Below, piece after piece: positions 1-10,743 of a stretch of 10,743 bases of DNA. The DNA lies in IMG/VR virus record IMGVR_UViG_2690316267_000013. The stretch is one strand, 5' to 3'. The notes under the pieces were generated by a model. It was not told the origin of the DNA, made no database searches, and saw nothing but the letters and a program-made list of their open reading frames with translations. Position 1 is the first letter of the stretch, and every line of letters begins with the position of its first letter. Made by a program: the position numbers and the translations under genes. This stretch comes from a virus (Duplodnaviria; Heunggongvirae; Uroviricota; Caudoviricetes).

Positions 1-2334
1 TCAGGTTGTTGCAGGGTCGTCACATTTTGGCAGCCAGTCGCCGTAGCTTTCCTCTTTCAGCGTCAGGTTGGTCTGTATCCCCTGTTTGGTATGGCGCTTC
101 TCGTAATTCAGTCCGTATTCCTTCAGCATCACCGGCAGCCCCAGCCCGAACATTTTCAGACTGAGTACGTTCCGGTAGCCGTTTGCCTCCATGTAGGCCA
201 GATAGGCGTGATAGAGGTATTTACGGTAATTGCGCGGGATGATACTCGCGTTCCCCATATACATGCCGCTGGTCTGCGGCAGGGTTTCCAGATAGCCGAT
301 AAAATCAAACGTCGGGTCGGCATCCCGTTTGATGTTCAGCGCCTCGTCTGAGTTCTGCTGGGACTGAAGCAGTGACCGGGCGAGCATCGGGTCGCTGAAC
401 TTCTGCATCAGGTGACGCACGATGACCGCCAGCTCGCGGGTGATTTTGTCCTTAAGCTGCGGGTCGCGCTCCTGCGGGGCTATCTGTTCCGGGAAGTGAA
501 TAATCACCCGCCGGCGTGACACGCCGCCGCTGCGGTCGGTGAAGCGCATCGGGTTATTGTTCACGGCCAGAATCACCGCCGGGATGTGCGTGGAGTACGC
601 ATCCCGGTATTTCGGGTCAACGGACACCGCATCGCCGCCGGTGATGGCCTTGAGTCCGGCTCCGTCGCCGCTCCATTTTTCCTGGTCCGGCAGGCGTATC
701 AGTGAGAAGCCAGTTAACGCGGCACGTTCACGCGGGGATTCCAGCGTCTCAATGGTGGCCGACGTGGCGTTATCTTCCCCGGCCAGCAGGGTGGCTATTT
801 CGGCCATGATACTTTTGCCGCTGCCGCCGGGACCGGTCACCTCCAGAAAGAGCTGCCAGTCGTAGCGGTTTGCCAGCACCATAAACAGTGCGGCCAGAAT
901 CACGTCGCGTTTTTCCGCACGACCACCGGCGGCACGGTCAAGCCAGCGCCAGAACGCGGGGGCGTGGGTTTCCAGCGTTTCCCCTTCCACCGGCGGGGTG
1001 AAATCCACATCGCACAGGGTGCGCATCCAGTGTGACGGACTGTGCGGGTGGAACGTGCCGCTCTGCGTGTCGAGCACGCCGTTACGAAAGCCAATCAGGC
1101 GGCGGGAGGGGGCTTCCTGCTGCGGAATAATCAGCTTCAGGGTGTCCACCACGGAGGCCACCTTCCCGGAGGAGAACGGCGCGCGCAGCCGCTGAAACAG
1201 CCCGGCCACATCCCGGGCAAAGTCCTGTGGTGGCAGCACCTTCCAGACACCATTTTCATAACGGGACAGAAGCTGGCCGTTGGCATCGACCGCGAGCGCC
1301 TCGCCGTAATGCTCATAGATACGCATGGCCTTTTCGCTGGTACTCATGGCGGAAAACTCCGCTTCGCTCATGGTGTCGAACGGGCTTTCAGCCGGTGGCC
1401 GGATGGCATCATAAATGGCCTTACGGGTGGCTTCCCCGCCGTACTGCGTGAAGGCATCATTCCAGTCACCGAAGACCGGCGGCAGGGCAACAACACCTTC
1501 ACACGCATCTGCGGCTGCGGCGGCTTTTGTCTGGCCGTCACCGCTGAGGTCACGGTCAGCAGCAAGGACAATATGACAGGCCGGATGCTTCTGCCGGGCA
1601 AGGCTGGCCAGAGAAAGGAGGTTCACGGAAGAAAGCGCCACCATCACCGTTTCACCGGTCAGGTGATGTACGGTAAGTGCGGTCGCGTATCCCTCCGCTA
1701 TCCACAGACGTTTTCCGGCCTGATTCTGTCCTTCAAGGGTGTGACAGGTGCCCCTGACCTGTCCGCCTTTCAGGGTACGCTTACGGCCGTCAGCACTGAT
1801 TAACTGAAGGTTAACCAGTTCGCCGCTGTCGTCATACAGTGGCACCACAAGGTCACCGGCGCGCCAGCTCACGCCACCGGCTCTGTGTGTGCCGGTCAGC
1901 ATCCGGCATTCCCGGCCGGGAAAGCCCTTGCGGGTCAGGTAGGCGTTACCGGTTCCGGGACGGGTTTTTGCCATCAGGGTTTGTGCCAGTGCGGCGGCGT
2001 TCTTCCGGGCAGCGTCTGTTTCAGCAACGGCGGCGGCCGTCACTGCCGGGTCAGCCGGGGGCAGACTGCCGGTCACGGCAGCCACCTTTGCGGCCGCGTC
2101 GGACGGGGAGACACCAAACACCTTTTCAACCAGTTTCAGGCCGTCACCGGCACCACACTGATTGCAGTACCAGGTGCCGCGCCCCTCCCTGTCATCAAAA
2201 CGGAAGCGGTCACTCCCGCCACAGACCGGACAGGGCTGATGACGGTTTTTCAGCACCTGAATCCCCAGCGCCGGGAGAATACGCGGCCAGTGGCCGAGCG
2301 CATGGCTGACGGTGGCGGTTACGTTCATTTTCAT
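1..2334 (-). CDS. alpha: P4-type alpha replication protein: zinc-ribbon/TOPRIM primase fused to a P-loop helicase, 777 aa
   Basis: N-terminal Cys4 motif (CPVCGG...CNQCG), TOPRIM acidic motif (LAADRD), Walker A (GPGGSGKS). Length is identical to P4 alpha. SD aaggag lies about 9 nt upstream of the ATG at 2332-2334. Stop codon at 1-3. Confidence 0.9.
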   Translation of the reverse strand: MKMNVTATVSHALGHWPRILPALGIQVLKNRHQPCPVCGGSDRFRFDDREGRGTWYCNQCGAGDGLKLVEKVFGVSPSDAAAKVAAVTGSLPPADPAVTAAAVAETDAARKNAAALAQTLMAKTRPGTGNAYLTRKGFPGRECRMLTGTHRAGGVSWRAGDLVVPLYDDSGELVNLQLISADGRKRTLKGGQVRGTCHTLEGQNQAGKRLWIAEGYATALTVHHLTGETVMVALSSVNLLSLASLARQKHPACHIVLAADRDLSGDGQTKAAAAADACEGVVALPPVFGDWNDAFTQYGGEATRKAIYDAIRPPAESPFDTMSEAEFSAMSTSEKAMRIYEHYGEALAVDANGQLLSRYENGVWKVLPPQDFARDVAGLFQRLRAPFSSGKVASVVDTLKLIIPQQEAPSRRLIGFRNGVLDTQSGTFHPHSPSHWMRTLCDVDFTPPVEGETLETHAPAFWRWLDRAAGGRAEKRDVILAALFMVLANRYDWQLFLEVTGPGGSGKSIMAEIATLLAGEDNATSATIETLESPRERAALTGFSLIRLPDQEKWSGDGAGLKAITGGDAVSVDPKYRDAYSTHIPAVILAVNNNPMRFTDRSGGVSRRRVIIHFPEQIAPQERDPQLKDKITRELAVIVRHLMQKFSDPMLARSLLQSQQNSDEALNIKRDADPTFDFIGYLETLPQTSGMYMGNASIIPRNYRKYLYHAYLAYMEANGYRNVLSLKMFGLGLPVMLKEYGLNYEKRHTKQGIQTNLTLKEESYGDWLPKCDDPATT

Positions 2335-2348
2335 GGTGTTGTTCTCCT

Positions 2349-2669
2349 TCAGTGCAGTACCGGCGCTTTTATGTGACGGGCACAGAGTTCATCCATCACA
2401 ACCAGCCCGAGAAAGGACAGCGACGGCGCGGCCTTCAGGGGGCCGGATTCCATTAAATCTTCCAGCAGGGCACAGGCTATCTGACGCCCTTTTTCCTCAC
2501 CGTGCTGGCGCAGATAAAAGCCTTCCAGCTCAGCGGCGATGGCCGCCTCCAGTGACTCAAGGGTGAGATGCGGGTAGCGGTGCTGACGTTCGCACACGGT
2601 CAGCCAGGCACAGGCGACAGCGCGACGGTAAAGGGCAGCGCGTAAGACGGGCGGTAAGGGTGTTTTCAT
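2349..2669 (-). CDS. cnr: 106-aa protein immediately upstream of alpha; Cnr-like (P4 copy-number regulator) by size and synteny
   Basis: ORF of 106 aa with SD gggagg about 7 nt upstream of the ATG. Its stop (2349-2351) overlaps the alpha SD region. Same size and position as P4 orf106/cnr. The functional call is by synteny only. Confidence 0.55.
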
Positions 2670-2804
2670 TTGCTTTCCTCCCTGTGACAGATGACTGCAT
2701 TCCGTGCCGGTTGCATTAACTGATAAGGCATATCTGCGTCTCCTGAAGACGTGCGTATCCCTGCGCGAATACGCACATTTAATTTTTCGGGTGTCGTTTT
2801 TTAA

Positions 2805-3260
2805 TTACAGATAATTGCGGTAACTGTTATCCGGGGTGATTTCCGGGTCAGGCTCCGTGCGGGGAATTTCCCGCCATTCCCGCGCCACCGGTGCCGCCCG
2901 GCTGACCGGAACAGTGTCCTGCGGGTAAATATCCAGATATTTCTCCCGCCATTTCTGTAATTCCGGGTCTCCGGCCATTTCTTTCAGTACCGCATGCCGG
3001 TTTACGGGGCTGCGTTTGAACAGGTCAGGACGGTCACAGGTAAATTCCCGCAGAAAACGCCCCAGCGGGATGTCTGTGGTGCGCCCGTCAGCGAGGATAC
3101 GCACAAGGATACTGAATTTACGGCGGTACGGGTTCCAGACAATGTCCGGGCAGCGGTACGGCATTTCCCACGGAATACCGTCTTCCAGAATGCCGACCAC
3201 GGCCACATCGGGAAAACCGGCAGAACGGTAAATCTCACCGGGCTGGGGAAAATCAAACAT
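2805..3260 (-). CDS. Hypothetical 151-aa left-operon protein (P4 orf151 position and size)
   Basis: ORF of 151 aa. Its ATG (3258-3260) overlaps the stop of the upstream 95-aa gene by 8 nt (ATGTTTGA), suggesting translational coupling. No motif recognised. Confidence 0.6.
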   Translation of the reverse strand: MFDFPQPGEIYRSAGFPDVAVVGILEDGIPWEMPYRCPDIVWNPYRRKFSILVRILADGRTTDIPLGRFLREFTCDRPDLFKRSPVNRHAVLKEMAGDPELQKWREKYLDIYPQDTVPVSRAAPVAREWREIPRTEPDPEITPDNSYRNYL

Positions 3261-3540
3261 GCGTCCTGTCTCCCCGGTCTTTCTGCTGGGCGAGAAAATC
3301 GCGGCACAGGCCTTTGGCTTTCAGCTCATTCAGCACAAAATCAATATCTTCATTCAGGTAGCTGAAAATATGCGGAATGTAGAGCTGATGCAGGCCGGAG
3401 AGTTCACGGTGAATCAAATCACCCCCAACAAACTGGGATACGGCGCTGGCGCGGTTGAGCTTATGGTAAGCCTCAATGCTGAGGTGTTCACGGGCGTCAT
3501 GACGTGCTGAGACGGTCTGAGGGGCTTTTTTATTACGCAC
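3253..3540 (-). CDS. 95-aa protein with GTG start; possible equivalent of P4 epsilon (helper-prophage derepression) by position
   Basis: GTG at 3538-3540 is preceded by a strong SD (GGAGG, 6-nt spacer). It reads to TGA at 3253-3255. The ORF track merges this into a longer 177-aa ORF, but the SD-GTG context supports the 95-aa product. The functional call is positional only. Confidence 0.45.
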
Positions 3541-3730
3541 GGGACACCTCCACCACCGGCAGACGGGCAGCAAGGGAGAGCACATAGTCACGGACAAGGG
3601 AACGGCGGGCGCTGCGTTCATCACCGGCGACGGTGCGAAGCATACAGATACGGGGATGACGGCCTGCGCGACGGACAGCCGCAAACACAAAGACAAATTC
3701 AGGGTGTGAGGGGGTAAGGGTTGTAGCCAT
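3533..3730 (-). CDS. 65-aa first ORF of the left operon, Kil-like by position; its SD overlaps a seqC-like RNA target site
   Basis: ATG at 3728-3730 with SD AAGGAGG (plus-strand 3739-3745). Its stop overlaps the GTG of the next gene (GTGCGTAA). The ORF track extends this frame to 199 aa, but the upstream part is low-complexity and covers the immunity RNA region. Confidence 0.45.
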
Positions 3731-3741
3731 GATGGCAGCCT

Positions 3742-3782
3742 CCTTGAAGTAACAGTTACAGCTACCACTGGAGTTCCTACGC
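3742..3782 (-). promoter_or_regulatory. seqC-like target site (ccttgaagtaac ... gagttcctacgc) complementary to seqB of the candidate CI RNA
   Basis: Shares two sequence blocks with the site at 3963-3990. Both blocks are complementary to 3805-3828. Overlaps the SD of the 65-aa ORF. Confidence 0.5.
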
Positions 3783-3789
3783 TCATGGG

Positions 3790-3875
3790 TGGTAGCCCGG
3801 ACGGGGGTAGGAATACCGGCCTTCAAGGAAACCGGCCAGCCCGAAGGCTGCCCCGCCCGGACCACCATTATCTGA
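3790..3875 (-). ncRNA. cI: Candidate CI-like immunity RNA containing a seqB element (approximate boundaries)
   Basis: Non-coding stretch between the two target-like sites. It contains 3805-3828 (gggggtaggaataccggccttcaagg), the reverse complement of blocks in both flanking sites. A stable hairpin with a UUCG tetraloop on the minus-strand RNA lies at 3837-3850, and a possible closing stem pairs ggtggtccgg with ccgggctaccacc. Ends were not determined. Confidence 0.4.
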
Positions 3876-3962
3876 CAGAGGCTACGGTTTAAAAACCACA
3901 GCCAGAAAAACAGGTGTGCCGAAGCAACGACGTAAAAAAAGACGCATGGCGCGTCATATGTC

Positions 3963-3990
3963 GCCTTGAAGTAACTCGGGTTCCTACGCC
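3963..3990 (-). promoter_or_regulatory. seqA-like target site in the leader of the early leftward transcript
   Basis: ccttgaagtaac at 3964-3975 and ggttcctacgcc at 3979-3990, both complementary to the seqB-like element at 3805-3828. Confidence 0.5.
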
Positions 3991-4018
3991 CGGCTGCCGA
4001 TTTTGCGGCAGCGGAAAA

Positions 4019-4048
4019 ACTATATCCGCAAATGCCGGAAAAAGGCAA
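4019..4048 (-). promoter_or_regulatory. Candidate sigma70 early leftward promoter (PLE-like)
   Basis: On the minus strand: -35 TTGCCT (4043-4048), 18-nt spacer, -10 TATAGT (4019-4024). This would start the transcript about 20 nt upstream of the seqA-like site. By eye only. Confidence 0.35.
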
Positions 4049-4083
4049 GCCAGAAAAAGGGAGTTTTTGCAGAGCGGGCATCA

Positions 4084-4350
4084 TCATGCGTCGTACCCCC
4101 GTTTGCGTCCGGCAATGCGTCCGGCCATCCATGCGGTGACTTCAGAGTGCAGCCAGGCCACATTTTTACCGCCAAGACTCACCTGCGGCGGAAATTCCCC
4201 CTTACGGATGAGTTCATAGATGGTCGAGCGTGACAGGCCGCACAGGTGCATCACTTCCGGCAGACGTAAAAAACGCTCCTGCGTGATGTCCGGCAGCGGC
4301 ATCAGTGGCGTCACAGGGGCGGGAGACGGGGAAGAAAAAACAGCTTGCAT
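4084..4350 (-). CDS. vis: Vis/AlpA-family small HTH DNA-binding protein (late-promoter regulator and excision factor), 88 aa
   Basis: 88-aa ORF with SD gaggt about 7 nt upstream of the ATG. AlpA-like signature (LRLPEV...[16 protein letters not shown]). Same size and position as P4 vis (orf88). Confidence 0.75.
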
Positions 4351-4452
4351 CGGGCTACCTCGTTAATGTCCATACAGCACCGGATAAGTCCGTCCGGCTT
4401 CGGGTAGCGCTTTATTTTGTGAATATTTTTGGCAGACGCAACAGGGGGGATT

Positions 4453-4470
4453 TGTTCCGGCAGCCTTACA
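4453..4470 (-). promoter_or_regulatory. TGT-N12-ACA box (Delta/Ogr-type activator site) for the leftward late promoter (PLL-like) upstream of vis
   Basis: TGTtccggcagccttACA with exact 12-nt spacing, centred about 110 bp upstream of the vis ATG. Confidence 0.4.
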
Positions 4471-4496
4471 ATGACTGTGTGTTTTTTGTTCATTCC

Positions 4497-4525
4497 CACT
4501 TAAAGTCATTTAAAGCCACTTAAAG
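4497..4525. repeat. Three tandem 10-bp repeats CA(C/T)TTAAAG with one-helical-turn periodicity
   Basis: cacttaaag at 4497-4505, catttaaag at 4507-4515, cacttaaag at 4517-4525. Confidence 0.6.
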
Positions 4526-4629
4526 CAATTCGTAATTTTTATAGTGAAATACAAATCGTTTCTTCTTATTCATTCACGGCGAATTAATAAAAACAAACAG
4601 TAGTAAACAGCACAAAAAGTCCATGAGCG

Positions 4630-4733
4630 GGTGAACAGTGGTGAACAGACGGTGAACAGTCATTACTGCGATTGTTCACCCTTTAACTTACTGTATTACT
4701 TATCTTTTTTCTTATGGTGAACAGAGGTGAACA
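4630..4733. repeat. Iteron cluster: six copies of the P4 type-I octamer TGTTCACC (five as GGTGAACA, one inverted); putative alpha-binding origin
   Basis: GGTGAACA at 4630-4637, 4640-4647, 4651-4658, 4716-4723 and 4726-4733; TGTTCACC at 4673-4680. The cluster is flanked by a direct repeat aaacaaacagta at 4591-4602 and 4748-4759. Confidence 0.6.
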
Positions 4734-4812
4734 GTAAAATATAAAAAAACAAACAGTAAGCCGGTTTTTCCTGCGACCTTTTCCTGGCTTGCCGGTCTGA
4801 GGATGAGTCTCC

Positions 4813-4830
4813 TGTGTCAGGGCTGGCACA
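4813..4830 (+). promoter_or_regulatory. TGT-N12-ACA box (Delta/Ogr-type activator site) of the sid late promoter (Psid-like)
   Basis: TGTgtcagggctggcACA with exact 12-nt spacing, centred about 80 bp upstream of the sid ATG, consistent with a -55 activator site. Confidence 0.5.
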
Positions 4831-4902
4831 TCTGCAATGCGTCGTGTTGTTGTCCGGTGTACGTCACAATTTTCTTAATCTGAAGTGACGAGGAGCCGGA
4901 AA

Positions 4903-5637
4903 ATGTCTGACAACACCATCCCTGAATATCTGCAACCCGCACTGGCACAACTGGAAAAGGCCAGAGCCGCTCATCTTGAGAACGCCCGACTGATGGATGA
5001 GACCGTCAAGGCCATTGAACGGGCAGAGCAGGAAAAAAATGCGCTGGCGCAGGCCGACGGAAATGACGCTGATGACTGGCGCACAGCCTTTCGTGCAGCC
5101 GGTGGTGTCCTGAGCGACGAGCTGAAACAGCGCCACATTGAGCGCGTGGCACGCCGGGAGCTGGTACAGGAATATGACAATCTGGCCGTGGTGCTGAATT
5201 TTGAACGTGAACGCCTGAAAGGGGCGTGTGACAGCACGGCCACCGCCTACCGGAAGGCACATCATCACCTTCTGAGTCTGTATGCAGAGCATGAGCTGGA
5301 ACACGCCCTGAATGAAACCTGTGAGGCGCTTGTCCGGGCAATGCATCTGAGTATCCTGGTACAGGAAAATCCGCTCGCCAACACCACCGGCCATCAGGGC
5401 TACGTCGCACCGGAAAAGGCTGTCATGCAGCAGGTGAAATCATCGCTGGAACAGAAAATTAAACAGATGCAAATCAGCCTCACCGGCGAGCCGGTTCTCC
5501 GGCTGACCGGACTGTCAGCGGCAACACTCCCGCACATGGATTATGAGGTGGCAGGCACACCGGCACAGCGCAAGGTGTGGCAGGACAAAATAGACCAGCA
5601 GGGAGCAGAGCTTAAGGCCAGAGGACTGCTGTCATGA
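4903..5637 (+). CDS. sid: Sid, capsid size-determination external scaffold protein, 244 aa
   Basis: ATG at 4903 preceded by SD aggag with a 7-nt spacer; the ORF track starts 18 nt earlier at an in-frame GTG at 4885. Length from the ATG equals P4 Sid. Coiled-coil-like, Ala/Glu/Leu-rich sequence. Stop overlaps the delta start (ATGA). Confidence 0.85.
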   Translation: MSDNTIPEYLQPALAQLEKARAAHLENARLMDETVKAIERAEQEKNALAQADGNDADDWRTAFRAAGGVLSDELKQRHIERVARRELVQEYDNLAVVLNFERERLKGACDSTATAYRKAHHHLLSLYAEHELEHALNETCEALVRAMHLSILVQENPLANTTGHQGYVAPEKAVMQQVKSSLEQKIKQMQISLTGEPVLRLTGLSAATLPHMDYEVAGTPAQRKVWQDKIDQQGAELKARGLLS

Positions 5638-6134
5638 TTTACTGCCCGTCGTGTGGACATGTTGCTCACACCCGTCGCGCACATTTCATGGACGATGGCA
5701 CCAAGATAATGATTGCACAGTGCCGGAATATTTATTGCTCTGCGACATTTGAAGCGAGTGAAAGCTTTTTCTCTGACAGTAAAGATTCAGGAATGGAATA
5801 CATTTCAGGCAAACAGAGATACCGCGATTCACTGACGTCGGCCTCCGGCAGTATGAAACGCCCGAAAAGAATGCTTGTTACCGGATATTGTTGTCGGAGA
5901 TGTAAAGGCCTTGCACTGTCAAGAACATCGCGGCGTCTGTCTCAGGAAGTCACCGAGCGTTTTTATGTGTGCACGGATCCGGGCTGTGGTCTGGTGTTTA
6001 AAACGCTTCAGACCATCACCCGCTTCATTGTCCGCCCGGTCACGCCGGACGAACTGGCAGAACGCCTGCATGAAAAACAGGAACTGCCGCCAGTACGGTT
6101 AAAAACACAATCATATTCGCTGCGTCTGGAATGA
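5634..6134 (+). CDS. delta: Delta, late transcription activator with two Ogr-like zinc-finger modules, 166 aa
   Basis: Two Cys4 modules (CPSCGH...CRNIYC and CRRCKG...CTDPGC). Length equals P4 Delta. Start is coupled to the sid stop. Confidence 0.85.
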   Translation: MIYCPSCGHVAHTRRAHFMDDGTKIMIAQCRNIYCSATFEASESFFSDSKDSGMEYISGKQRYRDSLTSASGSMKRPKRMLVTGYCCRRCKGLALSRTSRRLSQEVTERFYVCTDPGCGLVFKTLQTITRFIVRPVTPDELAERLHEKQELPPVRLKTQSYSLRLE

Positions 6135-6207
6135 GGGCTGCCGGTTAACACCGGCCGTCGCCACACACCGTATTTTTATTCTTCAGCATGATGAGAAAGA
6201 GATAACG

Positions 6208-6780
6208 ATGGAAAGCACAGCCTTACAGCAGGCCTTTGACACCTGTCAGAATAACAAAGCAGCATGGCTGCAACGCAAAAATGAGCTGGCTGCGGCCGAA
6301 CAGGAATATCTGCGGCTTCTGTCAGGAGAAGGCAGAAACGTCAGTCGCCTGGACGAATTACGCAATATTATCGAAGTCAGAAAATGGCAGGTGAATCAGG
6401 CCGCCGGTCGTTATATTCGTTCGCATGAAGCCGTTCAGCACATCAGCATCCGCGACCGGCTGAATGATTTTATGCAGCAGCACGGCACAGCACTGGCGGC
6501 GGCACTGGCACCGGAGCTGATGGGCTACAGTGATCTGACGGCCATTGCCCGAAACTGTGCCATACAGCGTGCCACAGATGCCCTGCGTGAAGCCCTCCTG
6601 TCCTGGCTTGCGAAGGGTGAAAAAATTAATTATTCCGCACAGGATAGCGACATTTTAACGACCATCGGATTCAGGCCTGACGCGGCTTCGGTGGATGACA
6701 GCCGTGAAAAATTCACCCCTGCGCAGAACATGATTTTTTCGCGTAAAAGTGCGCAACTGGCATCACGTCAGTCTGTGTAA
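6208..6780 (+). CDS. psu: Psu, polarity suppression (Rho antagonist) and capsid decoration protein, 190 aa
   Basis: 190-aa ORF, last gene of the sid-delta-psu operon, directly upstream of cos. Same length and position as P4 Psu. Confidence 0.85.
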   Translation: MESTALQQAFDTCQNNKAAWLQRKNELAAAEQEYLRLLSGEGRNVSRLDELRNIIEVRKWQVNQAAGRYIRSHEAVQHISIRDRLNDFMQQHGTALAAALAPELMGYSDLTAIARNCAIQRATDALREALLSWLAKGEKINYSAQDSDILTTIGFRPDAASVDDSREKFTPAQNMIFSRKSAQLASRQSV

Positions 6781-6810
6781 AATTCCCCGAAAATCCGCCC
6801 GTTTTTACTG

Positions 6811-6849
6811 AAAAAAGCCATGCATCGATAAGGTGCATGGCTTTGCATG
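6811..6849. terminator. Hairpin terminator after psu, bidirectional (strong on minus strand, weaker on plus)
   Basis: 9-bp stem agccatgca/tgcatggct (6816-6824 and 6834-6842) with a 9-nt loop. It is flanked by A6 on the left (a U6 tract for minus-strand transcripts) and ttgcatgcgttt on the right. Confidence 0.5.
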
Positions 6850-6944
6850 CGTTTCCCTGCCTCATTTTCTGCAGACCGCGCCATTCCCGGCGCGGTCTGA
6901 GCGTGTCAGTGCAACTGCATTAAAACCGCCCCGCAAAGCGGGCG

Positions 6945-6963
6945 GGCGAGGCGGGGAAAGCAC
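6945..6963. other. cos site: 19-nt P2/P4-type cohesive-end sequence GGCGAGGCGGGGAAAGCAC
   Basis: Exact match to the 19-nt cohesive end shared by P2 and P4 as I recall it. Located between psu and the cargo gene, as in P4. Flanked by inverted repeats at 6872-6899 and 6977-7015. Confidence 0.7.
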
Positions 6964-7198
6964 TGCGCGCCCCCGGTTGGTGCTCGTTACTAATGTTTTT
7001 TGCGCCCGAGCACCGTCGGGAAGGGGCTGGGGGGGATAGGGGAGGTGCCTGACGTCGCGCGGTAATGTTGGTAAGTGTGCCGCTGATGGCTTCTGAGGGG
7101 AGTGGTAAATAGCCGCCTTTCGACGGTGTAGTGGGGAGAGTATTGCTTACAAACGTAATGAAATTGTTTGAGTAGCTAGGCTACTGCATAGGATTATT

Positions 7199-7228
7199 TT
7201 GTTCTGTTAATATATCCGTTAATATAGA
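7199..7228 (+). promoter_or_regulatory. Candidate sigma70 promoter of the cargo gene
   Basis: -35 TTGTTC (7199-7204), about 18-nt spacer, -10 TATAGA (7223-7228) in an AT-rich stretch. Direct repeat gttaatata at 7202/7205-7213 and 7219-7227 overlaps the spacer. By eye only. Confidence 0.3.
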
Positions 7229-7254
7229 TAGATTGATCCAATTGAGTTTAAGGA

Positions 7255-8964
7255 ATGAGTATGTTTCAGATATCAGCTGGAGTGTTCTTTGATTTAGATA
7301 AAATAGAAAAACACGATGGCACATTTGTTTTTTATTCAAATGTTGATGTGTCTTTCTCGGTGGAAAACACCTCCCCTCTTTTTAAAGCAAATAAAATAAG
7401 TCATGATGGTATAAACTGTTATGTGGTAAACTATACTCTCCTGACCGAAAAACCAGAACGAATTGAAGCTGGAGTCGTAGTTAGGGCTGGTGATGAGGAT
7501 TATAGGCAACAATTTATTTTATTATGGGAATTCTATTTTGATTGTGTGGCTAGAGTAGAAAAAGAATCGGTTAAAAAAATATGTGCATTATCAAATTTTA
7601 ATAAACATCACTCAAAAATTGCGCTTGAAGTTGCCCCATATTTAGTGGAGATTAATCGAAGAGTTTCATTTGATGATGTCTCTGGGTTTTCTGCTTTTAT
7701 TAAAGATGTAGTGAATCTAAATAGATCTGCCTTTAAATCTTTAATGGCAGCGTTAAAAATAATTAGTGATTCAAAAGAATCATTGTCAACCAACTTTGAC
7801 CTGACTTATTCCATGTTAGTCTATGCCTTGGAGTCTTTGTCTCAAAGAAATGATAACTATAAGTCTGATTGGGATGACTACGATCAAAAAACCAGAGGTG
7901 AATTAGAGTCTGTATTTGAGCATATGCCTGGTGAGGATGTTTGTAAAATTAAATCAATACTTATTGAAGGCAAACAATTCAGATTACAAAAAAGGTTCAA
8001 AGATTTTATACTGAAAAATCTTGAAGAAAATTATTTCAATGAAACAGAGAGATATCCAATCCGCTATAGCTTCCTTAGTAGAGCTTTAGATAATTTATAC
8101 AAAATCAGGTCTTCTTTTGTCCATGAGCTTAAGCCACTTGATGCAATGATCTCGAAAGCCTACAATCCTGTTGGTGATTGTCTGGTTCTTTTTGGCGAAC
8201 CTCACTTCAGTTACTCTGGATTGCTTCGACTTCTTCGCCATGTGATAATAAATTTTTGCCGTAAAAACTACAGTCAAAAAAGAGAGTCTGTTAATTGGGT
8301 GATGGAAACATCGGGTGTAATGGTTGCAGAGATATCTGCACAATATTGGCTCTGGAATGCAGACGGATTTACAGCTAAAAGTATAGCGAAGTGGTTTAGT
8401 GAATACCTAAATATGTTAAATTTAGGCGAAGTCACTGATTTGCAGTCTATCATGGACAAAATTGAGATAATCTATGATCAATCCAAAAAAGAATATAAAA
8501 ATGGGTTGTTGCATTTTTATTTCTTATATAACTTAATGCATAATGGAAATAAGGGTGAATGGCTTGAGTTTGCGAACAAGCGAAGTTCTATACTTGTTTG
8601 TGATATATATTGGTATTCATGCTCTCCATATTTATATAAATCATTTACTAATGTTTCAAATGGTATTGCTGATATAAAAACATTGAGAAACTTTTTGTCT
8701 TGTTTTAACGAATATGATAAAAATAAATTTAAGCCAAATCGTTTAAATCTCCCTGCAATGACCGAAGTAATTATGTTGGCTTGCGCAGCAAATTCATTCT
8801 TCAGAATTGGAATGTATCAAGACTATGTTTTAATGGGCAATAGAGCGATGAGAGAAATTGCTTCAGTAAAAGATGTATTTTATTATATAAAAGAACGATT
8901 AAGTAATTCACAACTTATTGAATTGGACGAGTGCTTGAGATTGTATAGAAAAAAGGGGGGCTAA
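7255..8964 (+). CDS. Low-GC cargo protein of unknown function in the cos-int hotspot (569 aa from the first ATG; 567 aa from the better-placed ATG at 7261); candidate anti-phage or abortive-infection protein
   Basis: Long uninterrupted ORF with SD aagga 6 nt before the ATG at 7261. Composition is AT-rich and Lys/Asn/Ile/Phe/Tyr-rich, contrasting with the GC-rich satellite core. No Walker A and no YxDD motif. One R-x4-H motif (IRSSFVHE, codons at 8104-8127). Occupies the position where P4 carries gop-beta-cII. Confidence 0.8.
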   Translation: MSMFQISAGVFFDLDKIEKHDGTFVFYSNVDVSFSVENTSPLFKANKISHDGINCYVVNYTLLTEKPERIEAGVVVRAGDEDYRQQFILLWEFYFDCVARVEKESVKKICALSNFNKHHSKIALEVAPYLVEINRRVSFDDVSGFSAFIKDVVNLNRSAFKSLMAALKIISDSKESLSTNFDLTYSMLVYALESLSQRNDNYKSDWDDYDQKTRGELESVFEHMPGEDVCKIKSILIEGKQFRLQKRFKDFILKNLEENYFNETERYPIRYSFLSRALDNLYKIRSSFVHELKPLDAMISKAYNPVGDCLVLFGEPHFSYSGLLRLLRHVIINFCRKNYSQKRESVNWVMETSGVMVAEISAQYWLWNADGFTAKSIAKWFSEYLNMLNLGEVTDLQSIMDKIEIIYDQSKKEYKNGLLHFYFLYNLMHNGNKGEWLEFANKRSSILVCDIYWYSCSPYLYKSFTNVSNGIADIKTLRNFLSCFNEYDKNKFKPNRLNLPAMTEVIMLACAANSFFRIGMYQDYVLMGNRAMREIASVKDVFYYIKERLSNSQLIELDECLRLYRKKGG

Positions 8965-8980
8965 CCCCTTTTATTTTTAA
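8949..8980. terminator. Bidirectional intrinsic terminator shared by the convergent cargo and int genes
   Basis: aaaagggggg-ctaa-cccctttt hairpin (G/C stem 8955-8968) with T-tracts on both sides (tttatttttaa on plus; U6 on minus). The stop codons of both genes (8962-8964 and 8961-8963) lie inside the loop. Confidence 0.5.
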
Positions 8981-10157
8981 CGTATTCTCCCCACCAATCC
9001 ATCAATTCAATTCGCTGCACGAGATAAGTAGAACGATTGTATGCTTTTCTAACTTCATTTTTATCACTGTGGGCTAAGGCAGACTCGATAACATCAGGAT
9101 TTAATCCAGCTTCATTCATGGCTGTACTTGCTATTGAACGTAATCCATGGGCAACTAATTTTCCGCCAAAACCAATACGTTTTAAAGCTGCATTTGCAGT
9201 CTGACTGTTCATTGGTTTCTTTGGGTCATTCCGACTCGGAAAAACATATTCACGATGAGCACTAATAGGCTTCATCACATTAAGAATCTCTAATGCCTGA
9301 GATGATAGAGGAATTATGTGTTCCCGTTTAGCCTTCATCCGTTCGGCAGGAATCGTCCAGAGCTTTGCATGAAGATCGATTTCTTCCCACCGAGTACTGG
9401 AGGCTTCAGAAGGGCGCACAAGAGTCAGGAGTTGCCATTCAATTAGACAGCGAGTCGGGATAGACAGATTTGACATGACTAAAGAACGCATCAGCTTTGG
9501 TAATTCTTCAGGTCGAAGCGTCGGCATGTTTTGTTTTTTTGGCTTTTCGAAGGCCATGCCAACACCTGATGCTGGGTTTGCATCAATCAAGCCAGTGTTA
9601 ACCGCATAAATCATTATTTCGTTAATGCGTTGCACCAGACGACGTACAGTCTCTAATGCCCCACGAGCTTTGACTGGCTCAAGTGCTTCGACCAATGTTC
9701 TAGCTTTGATCTGCTGAACGGGCATCTCACCAACGGCGGGGAATACATCTTTTTCCAATGAGCGCCAAATATCTTTTGCATAATCAGGGGTAACACTTTT
9801 GCTTTTGAGCTGAAACCAATTAGCGGCGACCGTCGAGAAAATACTGTCCTGTGCGATTTGCTGCTGTTCCTCTGCAATTTCAGCTTGAATTTGCGGGTCA
9901 ATTCCGTTGGCTAACAAGGAAAGGTAATCCGCTCTTAAGCGTCGGGCGTCAGCAAGTGAAAGGGCTGGGAAGGCTCCTAGCCCCATCATTGTCCGTTGCT
10001 TTGTTGCCGGACGTTGATAACGGAAACGCCATAACTTCTTACCGTTCGTTTTAACGAGTAGAAAAAGACCATCGCCATCATGCAACGTTAGATCCTTTTC
10101 TAACGCTTTAGCGCGCAGTACTTCTGTGTTGGTCAGGGGGCGTGTCGTTCTTGCCAA
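8961..10157 (-). CDS. int: P4-type tyrosine integrase (N-terminal arm-binding domain plus catalytic domain), 398 aa, TTG start
   Basis: N-terminus typical of P4-family integrases (LTNTEV...GLFLLVKTNGKKLWRFRYQ...LGAFPALSLADAR). Catalytic-type HGLR and C-terminal Tyr region (RKAYNRSTY). SD gaaggag lies 8 nt upstream of the TTG at 10155-10157. Adjacent to and co-oriented with ssrA. Confidence 0.9.
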   Translation of the reverse strand: MARTTRPLTNTEVLRAKALEKDLTLHDGDGLFLLVKTNGKKLWRFRYQRPATKQRTMMGLGAFPALSLADARRLRADYLSLLANGIDPQIQAEIAEEQQQIAQDSIFSTVAANWFQLKSKSVTPDYAKDIWRSLEKDVFPAVGEMPVQQIKARTLVEALEPVKARGALETVRRLVQRINEIMIYAVNTGLIDANPASGVGMAFEKPKKQNMPTLRPEELPKLMRSLVMSNLSIPTRCLIEWQLLTLVRPSEASSTRWEEIDLHAKLWTIPAERMKAKREHIIPLSSQALEILNVMKPISAHREYVFPSRNDPKKPMNSQTANAALKRIGFGGKLVAHGLRSIASTAMNEAGLNPDVIESALAHSDKNEVRKAYNRSTYLVQRIELMDWWGEYVKNKRG

Positions 10158-10176
10158 TTTGGCCGCTCCTTCATGA

Positions 10177-10230
10177 ATTGGTATACGCGTTTAGGTATAC
10201 ATCCTACCGTATACCTAAACGTATACCAAT
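10177..10230. promoter_or_regulatory. Imperfect palindrome with four GGTATAC motifs between the int SD and ssrA; candidate Int/Vis operator or attP arm-type sites
   Basis: Left arm attggtatacgcgtttaggtatac (10177-10200) and right arm gtatacctaaacgtataccaat (10209-10230) are near-perfect reverse complements separated by 8 bp. GGTATAC occurs at 10180-10186 and 10194-10200, and inverted at 10209-10215 and 10222-10228. Confidence 0.5.
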
Positions 10231-10271
10231 AATCACTGGATTTAGCTGGATATCCTCGGACAACGGTAGAC

Positions 10272-10306
10272 ACAAAAAAGCCCGCAGAGCTTGTGCTATG
10301 CGGGCT
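10272..10306 (-). terminator. Intrinsic terminator downstream of ssrA, lying inside the element
   Basis: 8-bp stem agcccgca/tgcgggct (10279-10286 and 10299-10306) with a 12-nt loop, followed on the minus strand by UUUUUGUG (plus 10271-10278). Confidence 0.5.
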
Positions 10307-10341
10307 TTCAGGATTTCTCCGGACGTATCCGGAAGAGCAAG

Positions 10342-10704
10342 TGGTGGAGCTGGCGGGAGTTGAACCCGCGTCCGAAATTCCTACATCCTCGGTACTACAT
10401 GCTTAGTCAGTCTTTACATTCGCTTGCCAGCTGCGGACGGACACGCCACTAACAAACTAGCCTGATTAAGTTTTAACGCTTCAACCCCAGGCAGGGCTTC
10501 CACGCGATCTCTTTTGGGTTTGACCTCTCTTGATCCCCGTCCTAAGAGCGGAGGCTAGGGAGAGAGGGCTCTAAGCAGGTTATTAAGCTGCTAAAGCGTA
10601 GTTTTCGTCGTTTGCGACTATTTTTTGCGGCTTTTTACGAGGCCAACCGCCCCTCGGCATGCACCTTGGGTTTCGCAAATCCCGTCGAATCCAGAATCAG
10701 CCCC
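10342..10704 (-). ncRNA. ssrA: tmRNA (SsrA), 363 nt, enterobacterial type
   Basis: The reverse complement reads GGGGCTGATTCTGGATTCGACGGG ... and ends ...GTTCAACTCCCGCCAGCTCCACCA, matching E. coli tmRNA as I recall it. It includes the tag-peptide reading frame GCAAACGACGAAAACTACGCTTTAGCAGCTTAA (ANDENYALAA stop) at 10583-10615. Confidence 0.95.
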
Positions 10705-10743
10705 AATGTGTAAAGGTAAGTATACCAGATTTATGAGCGCCAT
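10705..10743 (-). promoter_or_regulatory. ssrA promoter region (-10 TATACT at 10719-10724 on the minus strand; -35 truncated by the window edge)
   Basis: TATACT lies 15-20 nt upstream of the mature tmRNA 5' end, consistent with a short precursor leader. Confidence 0.35.

Follow-up and report, generated by a model that had tools for sequence, protein, structure and literature searches.

What is the function of six identical octamers packed into the spacer between the vis and sid genes of a P4-like element? The question is raised by the window analysed here, a 10,743-bp stretch of viral DNA (IMG/VR record IMGVR_UViG_2690316267_000013), in which the octamer TGTTCACC had been predicted to occur six times within about 105 bp, five times in one orientation and once inverted, and to mark a replication origin. 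An exact-match search recovered six copies in the whole 10,743 bp, every one of them inside 4630–4733 (104 bp), with five on the minus strand (starting at 4630, 4640, 4651, 4716 and 4726) and one on the plus strand (4673), which bears out both the count and the arrangement. This number was never matched in 200 dinucleotide-preserving shuffles (mean 0.34 copies, maximum 3). Variants of TGTTCACC with one mismatch gave no extra sites in or near the array, and elsewhere in the window they occurred at chance level. The array lies in the sid-vis intergenic region, as had also been claimed: vis/orf88 (4084–4350, minus strand), encoding an AlpA-family protein, is on the P_LL side, and sid (4903–5637, plus strand), on the P_sid side, forms the right flank of this 552-bp region.

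Comparison with phage P4 provides the answer. Positions 1–6944 of the window are 98% identical to P4 4636–11624 (X51522 / NC_001609), and 4300–5000 aligns with P4 8980–9680 over its full length at 97% identity. The matched P4 segment is annotated ‘origin of DNA replication’ (rep_origin <9086..9809) and contains an ‘ori type 1 repeat (x6)’ and an ‘ori type 2 repeat (x3)’. Each octamer falls on a type 1 repeat of P4 (9310, 9320, 9331, 9353, 9396 and 9406, within 9310–9413) at a constant offset of 4680, and in the pairwise alignment, one of the checks proposed with the original prediction, the iterons and their spacings are all unchanged. The 5 + 1 orientation at P4 spacing and the position between vis and sid are likewise those of P4 ori1, as are the 35-bp spacer between iterons 4 and 5 (with two substitutions), the type 2 repeats, a 14-bp flanking repeat, and the presence of alpha and Cnr; three further substitutions fall just left of iteron 1 (4620–4628). 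The array is, on this sequence evidence, almost certainly ori1, the principal replication origin of a P4-type satellite that is carried as a prophage at ssrA in E. coli; the predicted origin function agrees with the annotation of its P4 counterpart.

This origin is already known. Work in the 1980s–1990s established the origin of P4, with its six type I iterons and alpha's recognition of them, and the reference P4 GenBank records list each iteron as a separate feature. As a discovery the array carries little weight; its value is as a calibration point, since a genuine functional cis element was picked out from sequence alone. What the comparison adds is the extent of a core (~4629–4758), a left repeat copy and type 2 repeats that appear dispensable in evolution, and use of the identical octamer by a second satellite family, the Gram-negative PICIs.

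Of 5426 complete E. coli genomes, 1067 contain the 231-bp origin segment, and in every one of them it is chromosomal. We scanned IMG/VR with an iteron-pair DNA pattern, which returned 120 loci and 60 unique vis-sid spacers, 18 of them from P4-near and 42 from diverged elements; because the loci were retrieved with this pattern, one iteron pair is intact by construction, and it is the other sites and the spacers that are informative. Within the diverged set (n = 42), alpha is 82–86% and Vis about 70% identical, and the six-site spacing (0, 10, 21, 43 inverted, 86, 96) recurs there as in P4-near elements. Identity to the window in the diverged set is 0.96–1.00 for iterons 1–5, 0.84 for iteron 6, 0.86 for the AT-rich spacer and 0.86 for the right copy of the flanking repeat; it is 0.53 for the left copy, 0.30 for the type 2 repeats and 0.24–0.64 for the other flanks. 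Consistently, the most diverged copies in a six-sequence alignment keep the DNA from iteron 1 through the right-hand A-tract/ACAAACAG and not the DNA leftward of it. The conserved origin core is the segment ~4629–4758, in which the iterons, the spacer and the A-rich block on the right are under purifying selection. A search of genome contigs with the Sid protein gave a single locus (L011, URND01000141.1), labelled ‘uncultured Clostridiales bacterium’ and 99% identical; the contig probably stems from Enterobacterales and ended up in a metagenome-assembled genome by mis-binning.

All six type I iterons are exact copies of the octamer. Iterons 1 (4630–4637), 2 (4640–4647) and 3 (4651–4658), on the minus strand, correspond to P4 9310–9317 (‘ori type 1 repeat’ in X51522), 9320–9327 and 9331–9338, and show conservation of 0.99, 0.96 and 1.00 across the 42 diverged elements. 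The sole inverted copy, iteron 4 (4673–4680, plus strand; P4 9353–9360; conservation 0.97), forms an 11-nt inverted repeat with iteron 3, and is followed on the minus strand by iterons 5 (4716–4723; P4 9396–9403; 0.96) and 6 (4726–4733; P4 9406–9413; 0.84). In most diverged elements iteron 6 is a one-mismatch variant, mostly GGTGAATA, or AGTGAATA. The start-to-start steps of 10, 11, 22, 43 and 10 bp bring the iteron starts into agreement within 0.07 turn at 10.75 bp per turn, and at about this pitch the six iterons share one helical face. The AT-rich spacer (4681–4715; 35 bp, 80% A+T, local GC minimum 0.14), which separates iterons 4 and 5, is the likely unwinding region; its conservation of 0.86 in diverged elements is well above that of adjacent non-iteron DNA. 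A second A+T trough (4734–4760, 81%) is found 3′ of iteron 6. The hairpin formed by iterons 3 and 4 (4651–4680) had been flagged as terminator-like; we rejected a terminator role, as both promoters beside it are directed outwards and the origin core shows no significant single-strand fold (z = −1.5).

Helical phasing and an AT-rich tract reportedly define minimal ori1, and the array has both, in the near-helical spacing of its iterons and the internal AT-rich tract of ~35 bp. The minimal origin is reportedly a 123-bp fragment in which six type I iterons, in helical phase, accompany an AT-rich region of 35 bp; deleting any iteron, or inserting 6 or 10 bp, is said to inactivate it. Since the iterons span 104 bp, such a fragment cannot hold the left copy of the flanking repeat (39 extra bp) or the whole of the right copy (25 extra bp). 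Two P4-near elements in IMG/VR (L068 1745–1858 and L090 8774–8887) carry a seventh exact TGTTCACC 10 bp past the usual array, in the pattern 0, 10, 53, 75, 86, 96, 106, so the number of iterons in ori1 appears to be variable by tandem gain.

The array resembles the iteron origins of plasmids such as pSC101, P1, F, R6K and RK2, which likewise combine phased direct repeats, a winged-helix initiator and an AT-rich unwinding element, and in which, as at ori1, copy number is controlled through the initiator. Unlike those origins, it lacks DnaA box and IHF consensus sequences, its initiator brings its own helicase and primase, and a distant site, crr, is needed. No match to the DnaA box TTWTNCACA lies beside the iterons or near the array, the single match in the window (6774–6782) being at chance level, and the IHF consensus was not found in or near the array. 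The absence of both fits the independence from host initiators that has been reported for P4.

The element encodes its own initiator. The gene for alpha (777 aa), which unites primase, helicase and origin-binding functions, occupies 1–2334 on the minus strand, and 9 of the 777 residues of its product are substituted relative to P4 alpha. Residues 671–770, encoded by about 25–324, match PDB 1KA8, the solved structure of the P4 origin-binding domain (E = 1e-63), a C-terminal winged-helix domain in which none of the nine substitutions falls. The neighbouring cnr gene (orf106; 2349–2669, minus strand), which we take to encode the copy-number regulator of the ori1 replicon, specifies a 106-aa protein identical to P4 ORF106. 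In the computed comparison alpha, its origin-binding domain and Cnr are all intact, and Vis, Sid, Delta and Psu each differ from their P4 counterparts by only 1–3 residues (Vis by 1, Sid by 2). On this machinery PMC4234260 cites Ziegelin and Lanka 1995 and Yeo et al.

The origin is bipartite, and the ori1 cluster makes up just one half; the other, crr, which is required in cis, lies outside the window. In P4, crr is annotated as ‘cis required region’ at 4291–4590, left of the alpha stop codon and hence beyond the first base of the window. In the genome of E. coli SCPM-O-B-12142 (NZ_CP144928.1), the same element, save for a 1-bp length difference, sits between ypjA and ssrA. Five exact octamers in the P4 crr pattern are present there, 51–313 bp outside the left end of the window, and the DNA that holds them matches P4 4291–4635 at 96% identity. 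The element thus has both halves of the origin, of which the window includes only ori1. The two halves share the TGTTCACC octamer, the alpha domain that would recognise it and a cis requirement for the same replicon. They differ in layout: P4 crr (X51522 4291–4590) consists of two 120-bp direct repeats downstream of alpha, and in each of these five type I repeats of mixed orientation are annotated, whereas ori1 is a single array of six octamers with an internal AT-rich spacer.

We infer the binding, unwinding and priming steps, and the requirement for crr, from the P4 literature. By this analogy the element's own alpha would bind the six TGTTCACC type I iterons through its C-terminal winged-helix domain, the hexameric SF3 helicase of alpha would melt the adjoining AT-rich DNA, and the N-terminal primase would lay the first primers. 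Replication would then proceed bidirectionally with host Pol III and would not require DnaA, DnaB, DnaC or DnaG. Firing would also need crr, the second iteron cluster in cis downstream of alpha, and Cnr would act on alpha to restrain initiation.

Two other roles for the octamers have to be weighed against ori1. An alternative origin, ori2, reportedly lies inside alpha, and ori1 is said not to be the sole possible start; the cluster might be an auxiliary alpha-loading or handcuffing site like crr, with initiation at ori2 or at crr itself. The same octamers do occur in crr, and titles cited in PMC6092414 (Tocchetti 1998/1999 and Magnoni 2006) point to a second P4 replicon using ori2 plus crr. 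However, the P4 records give the rep_origin label to this region and label crr ‘cis required region’, and six phased iterons around an AT-rich tract, conserved above every flank, have the architecture of an initiation site; we regard an auxiliary role as extremely unlikely. It is also very improbable that the cluster is mainly a transcriptional control site, at which bound alpha represses or activates P_LL and P_sid and so couples replication to late transcription. The array sits inside the vis-sid spacer between dyads of the form TGT-N12-ACA, which we take to be the Ogr/Delta activator-site pattern, at 4453–4470 on the vis side and at 4813–4830 and 4851–4868 on the sid side. The placement between divergent late promoters is therefore as predicted, and the conserved right-hand A-rich block lies 55 bp upstream of the P_sid dyad. 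The original prediction had gone further, holding that initiation and late-promoter activation share one small control region. This is correct as to position, but the iterons are 160 and 80 bp from the dyads, with no overlap, and no dyad falls within 4589–4758, as it would in a Delta/Ogr late-promoter operator, whose dyad is placed about 55 bp before a late transcription start. In diverged elements the core is fixed and the stretches separating it from the dyads drift (0.24–0.64), which is the pattern of two independent modules. A 123-bp ori1 fragment is moreover enough for replication, and rifampicin does not block P4 replication in vitro, both of which count against such coupling. In Gram-negative PICIs an array of the same octamer serves as the origin module downstream of pri (PMC6092414), where late promoters are not nearby.

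A sigma-70 promoter scan of 4300–4950 gave no match, as expected for activator-dependent late promoters, and is uninformative on the positions of P_LL and P_sid. The 90 bp upstream of the vis start codon (4351–4440) are very strongly conserved even in diverged elements and include a GC-rich, hairpin-like CCGTCCGGCTTCGGGTAGCG at about 4390–4409; the rep_origin annotation of P4 starts at the equivalent of 4406. This segment is presumably the P_LL core promoter and leader.

The identification as ori1 leaves the direct repeat around the array to be explained. A 12-bp repeat had been predicted on both sides, and AAACAAACAGTA indeed has two exact copies, the first at 4591–4602 as claimed and the second at 4747–4758 rather than 4748–4759; the exact repeat extends to 14 bp (AAAAACAAACAGTA; 4589–4602 and 4745–4758, both on the plus strand). 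When the 552-bp intergenic region was shuffled 2000 times with dinucleotide counts preserved, three of the shuffles contained a non-overlapping direct repeat of at least 14 bp and 28 contained one of at least 12 bp, and we rejected chance as the source of the 14-bp pair on this basis. The repeat could mark functional boundaries of the origin, either as a pair of sites for an accessory protein or as a recombination/duplication scar of a mobile ori cassette. Its improbability by chance and its presence in P4 itself favour such a role, as does a third copy, imperfect and inverted, at 4473–4487 (ACTGTGTGTTTTTT, complement of AAAAAACACACAGT), which abuts the vis-side dyad 4453–4470. Yet only the right copy is conserved in the 42 diverged elements (0.86, compared with 0.53 for the left, where the sequence is typically AAATAAAGTCTA), and a function for the pair was rejected on these grounds. 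In the P4-like copies of O157 and of a dog isolate, the six iterons are intact and one or both exact repeat copies are gone. The copies are also asymmetric about the array, 27 bp from iteron 1 and 13 bp from iteron 6, and no IHF or DnaA consensus accompanies them. The left region instead resembles a degenerate pair of iterons: 4592–4610 is 68% identical to the iteron pair GGTGAACAGTGGTGAACAG, and the left copy together with 4603–4611 is probably a decayed iteron-like pair. A boundary function is, in our view, improbable. The repeat does bracket the array in the window, but bracketing is a feature of the P4-near lineage and not of the origin type.

The right copy belongs to an A-rich block 3′ of iteron 6, with a local GC minimum of 0.10. 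Here AACAAACAGT begins 22 bp (two helical turns) past the start of iteron 6 and has 7 of 10 bases in common with GGTGAACAGT. The overlapping TAAAAAAACAAACAG (4742–4756) is near-invariant over the 60 unique P4-like vis-sid spacers and carries no origin annotation; we know of no documented role for this block. It may be part of ori1, as a weak seventh iteron or as a melting/priming site. The three 10-bp ‘ori type 2 repeats’ (4496–4525, plus strand; X51522 9176–9205) lie outside the interval of the original prediction and, given their low conservation (0.30 in diverged and 0.64 in P4-near elements), are probably dispensable.

The octamer is not confined to P4-like elements. About 45 IMG/VR loci and E. 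coli CREC-629 (L009/L133), none of them P4-like, carry nine exact copies of TGTTCACC in about 213 bp, in the pattern 0+, 10+, 53−, 74+, 93+, 127−, 137−, 169+, 213−, about 50 bp downstream of a primase-helicase gene (L009 475–696; L133 8473–8760 with a tandem second copy; also L016, L019, L021, L024, L025, L030, L035 and L038). E. coli CREC-629 carries the entire island as a tandem duplication. The primase-helicase is 48% identical to alpha 290–771, origin-binding domain included, and alpha's N-terminal primase region is missing in the alignment. The islands encode an integrase, an AlpA-like HTH protein, an Icd-like protein, primase, SSB, major capsid protein, head decoration protein and small terminase, with no sid, delta or psu among their genes, a set that identifies them as capsid-encoding Gram-negative PICIs. 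Like ori1, Gram-negative PICI origins of the EcCICFT073 type are iteron arrays flanking an AT-rich region, according to Fillol-Salom et al. 2018 (PMC6092414); PMC10111431 also treats PICI origins. The PICI array differs from ori1 in iteron number and spacing and lies directly downstream of the primase gene, as crr does, not between late promoters. The window array is placed differently: it lies between vis and sid, with 2.3 kb and five genes separating it from the alpha start. A full-text literature search found TGTTCACC in no P4-related open-access text. With the octamer and the origin-binding domain in common, P4-type satellites and PICIs could conceivably cross-fire, titrate or handcuff each other's origins in one cell, a doubtful prospect that, if true, would mean incompatibility or piracy between satellites.

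The remainder of the element departs from P4. Homology ends at cos (window 6944 = P4 11624), and gop/beta/cII/int are replaced in 6945–10743, so that, in contrast to P4, another cargo ORF and another integrase follow cos and the element sits at ssrA rather than at P4's own attachment site. The tyrosine integrase (398 aa; 8961–10157, minus strand) adjoins ssrA/tmRNA (10342–10704, minus strand), the integration site. On the other side of cos, Rfam models identify the P4 immunity RNA system on the minus strand, comprising the C4 antisense RNA (CI RNA; 3785–3872), isrK (3935–4012) and the c4 a1b1 target (3973–4025). For an ORF of 199 aa (3533–4132), the annotation of RefSeq relatives is that of a split or pseudogenised Icd-like/ash region. 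The cargo ORF (569 aa; 7255–8964, plus strand) belongs to no Pfam family and gives a weak PADLOC match to Cas13-ApeA (E = 7e-6), making it a candidate defence gene in a known variable hotspot of the P4-type satellite at ssrA.
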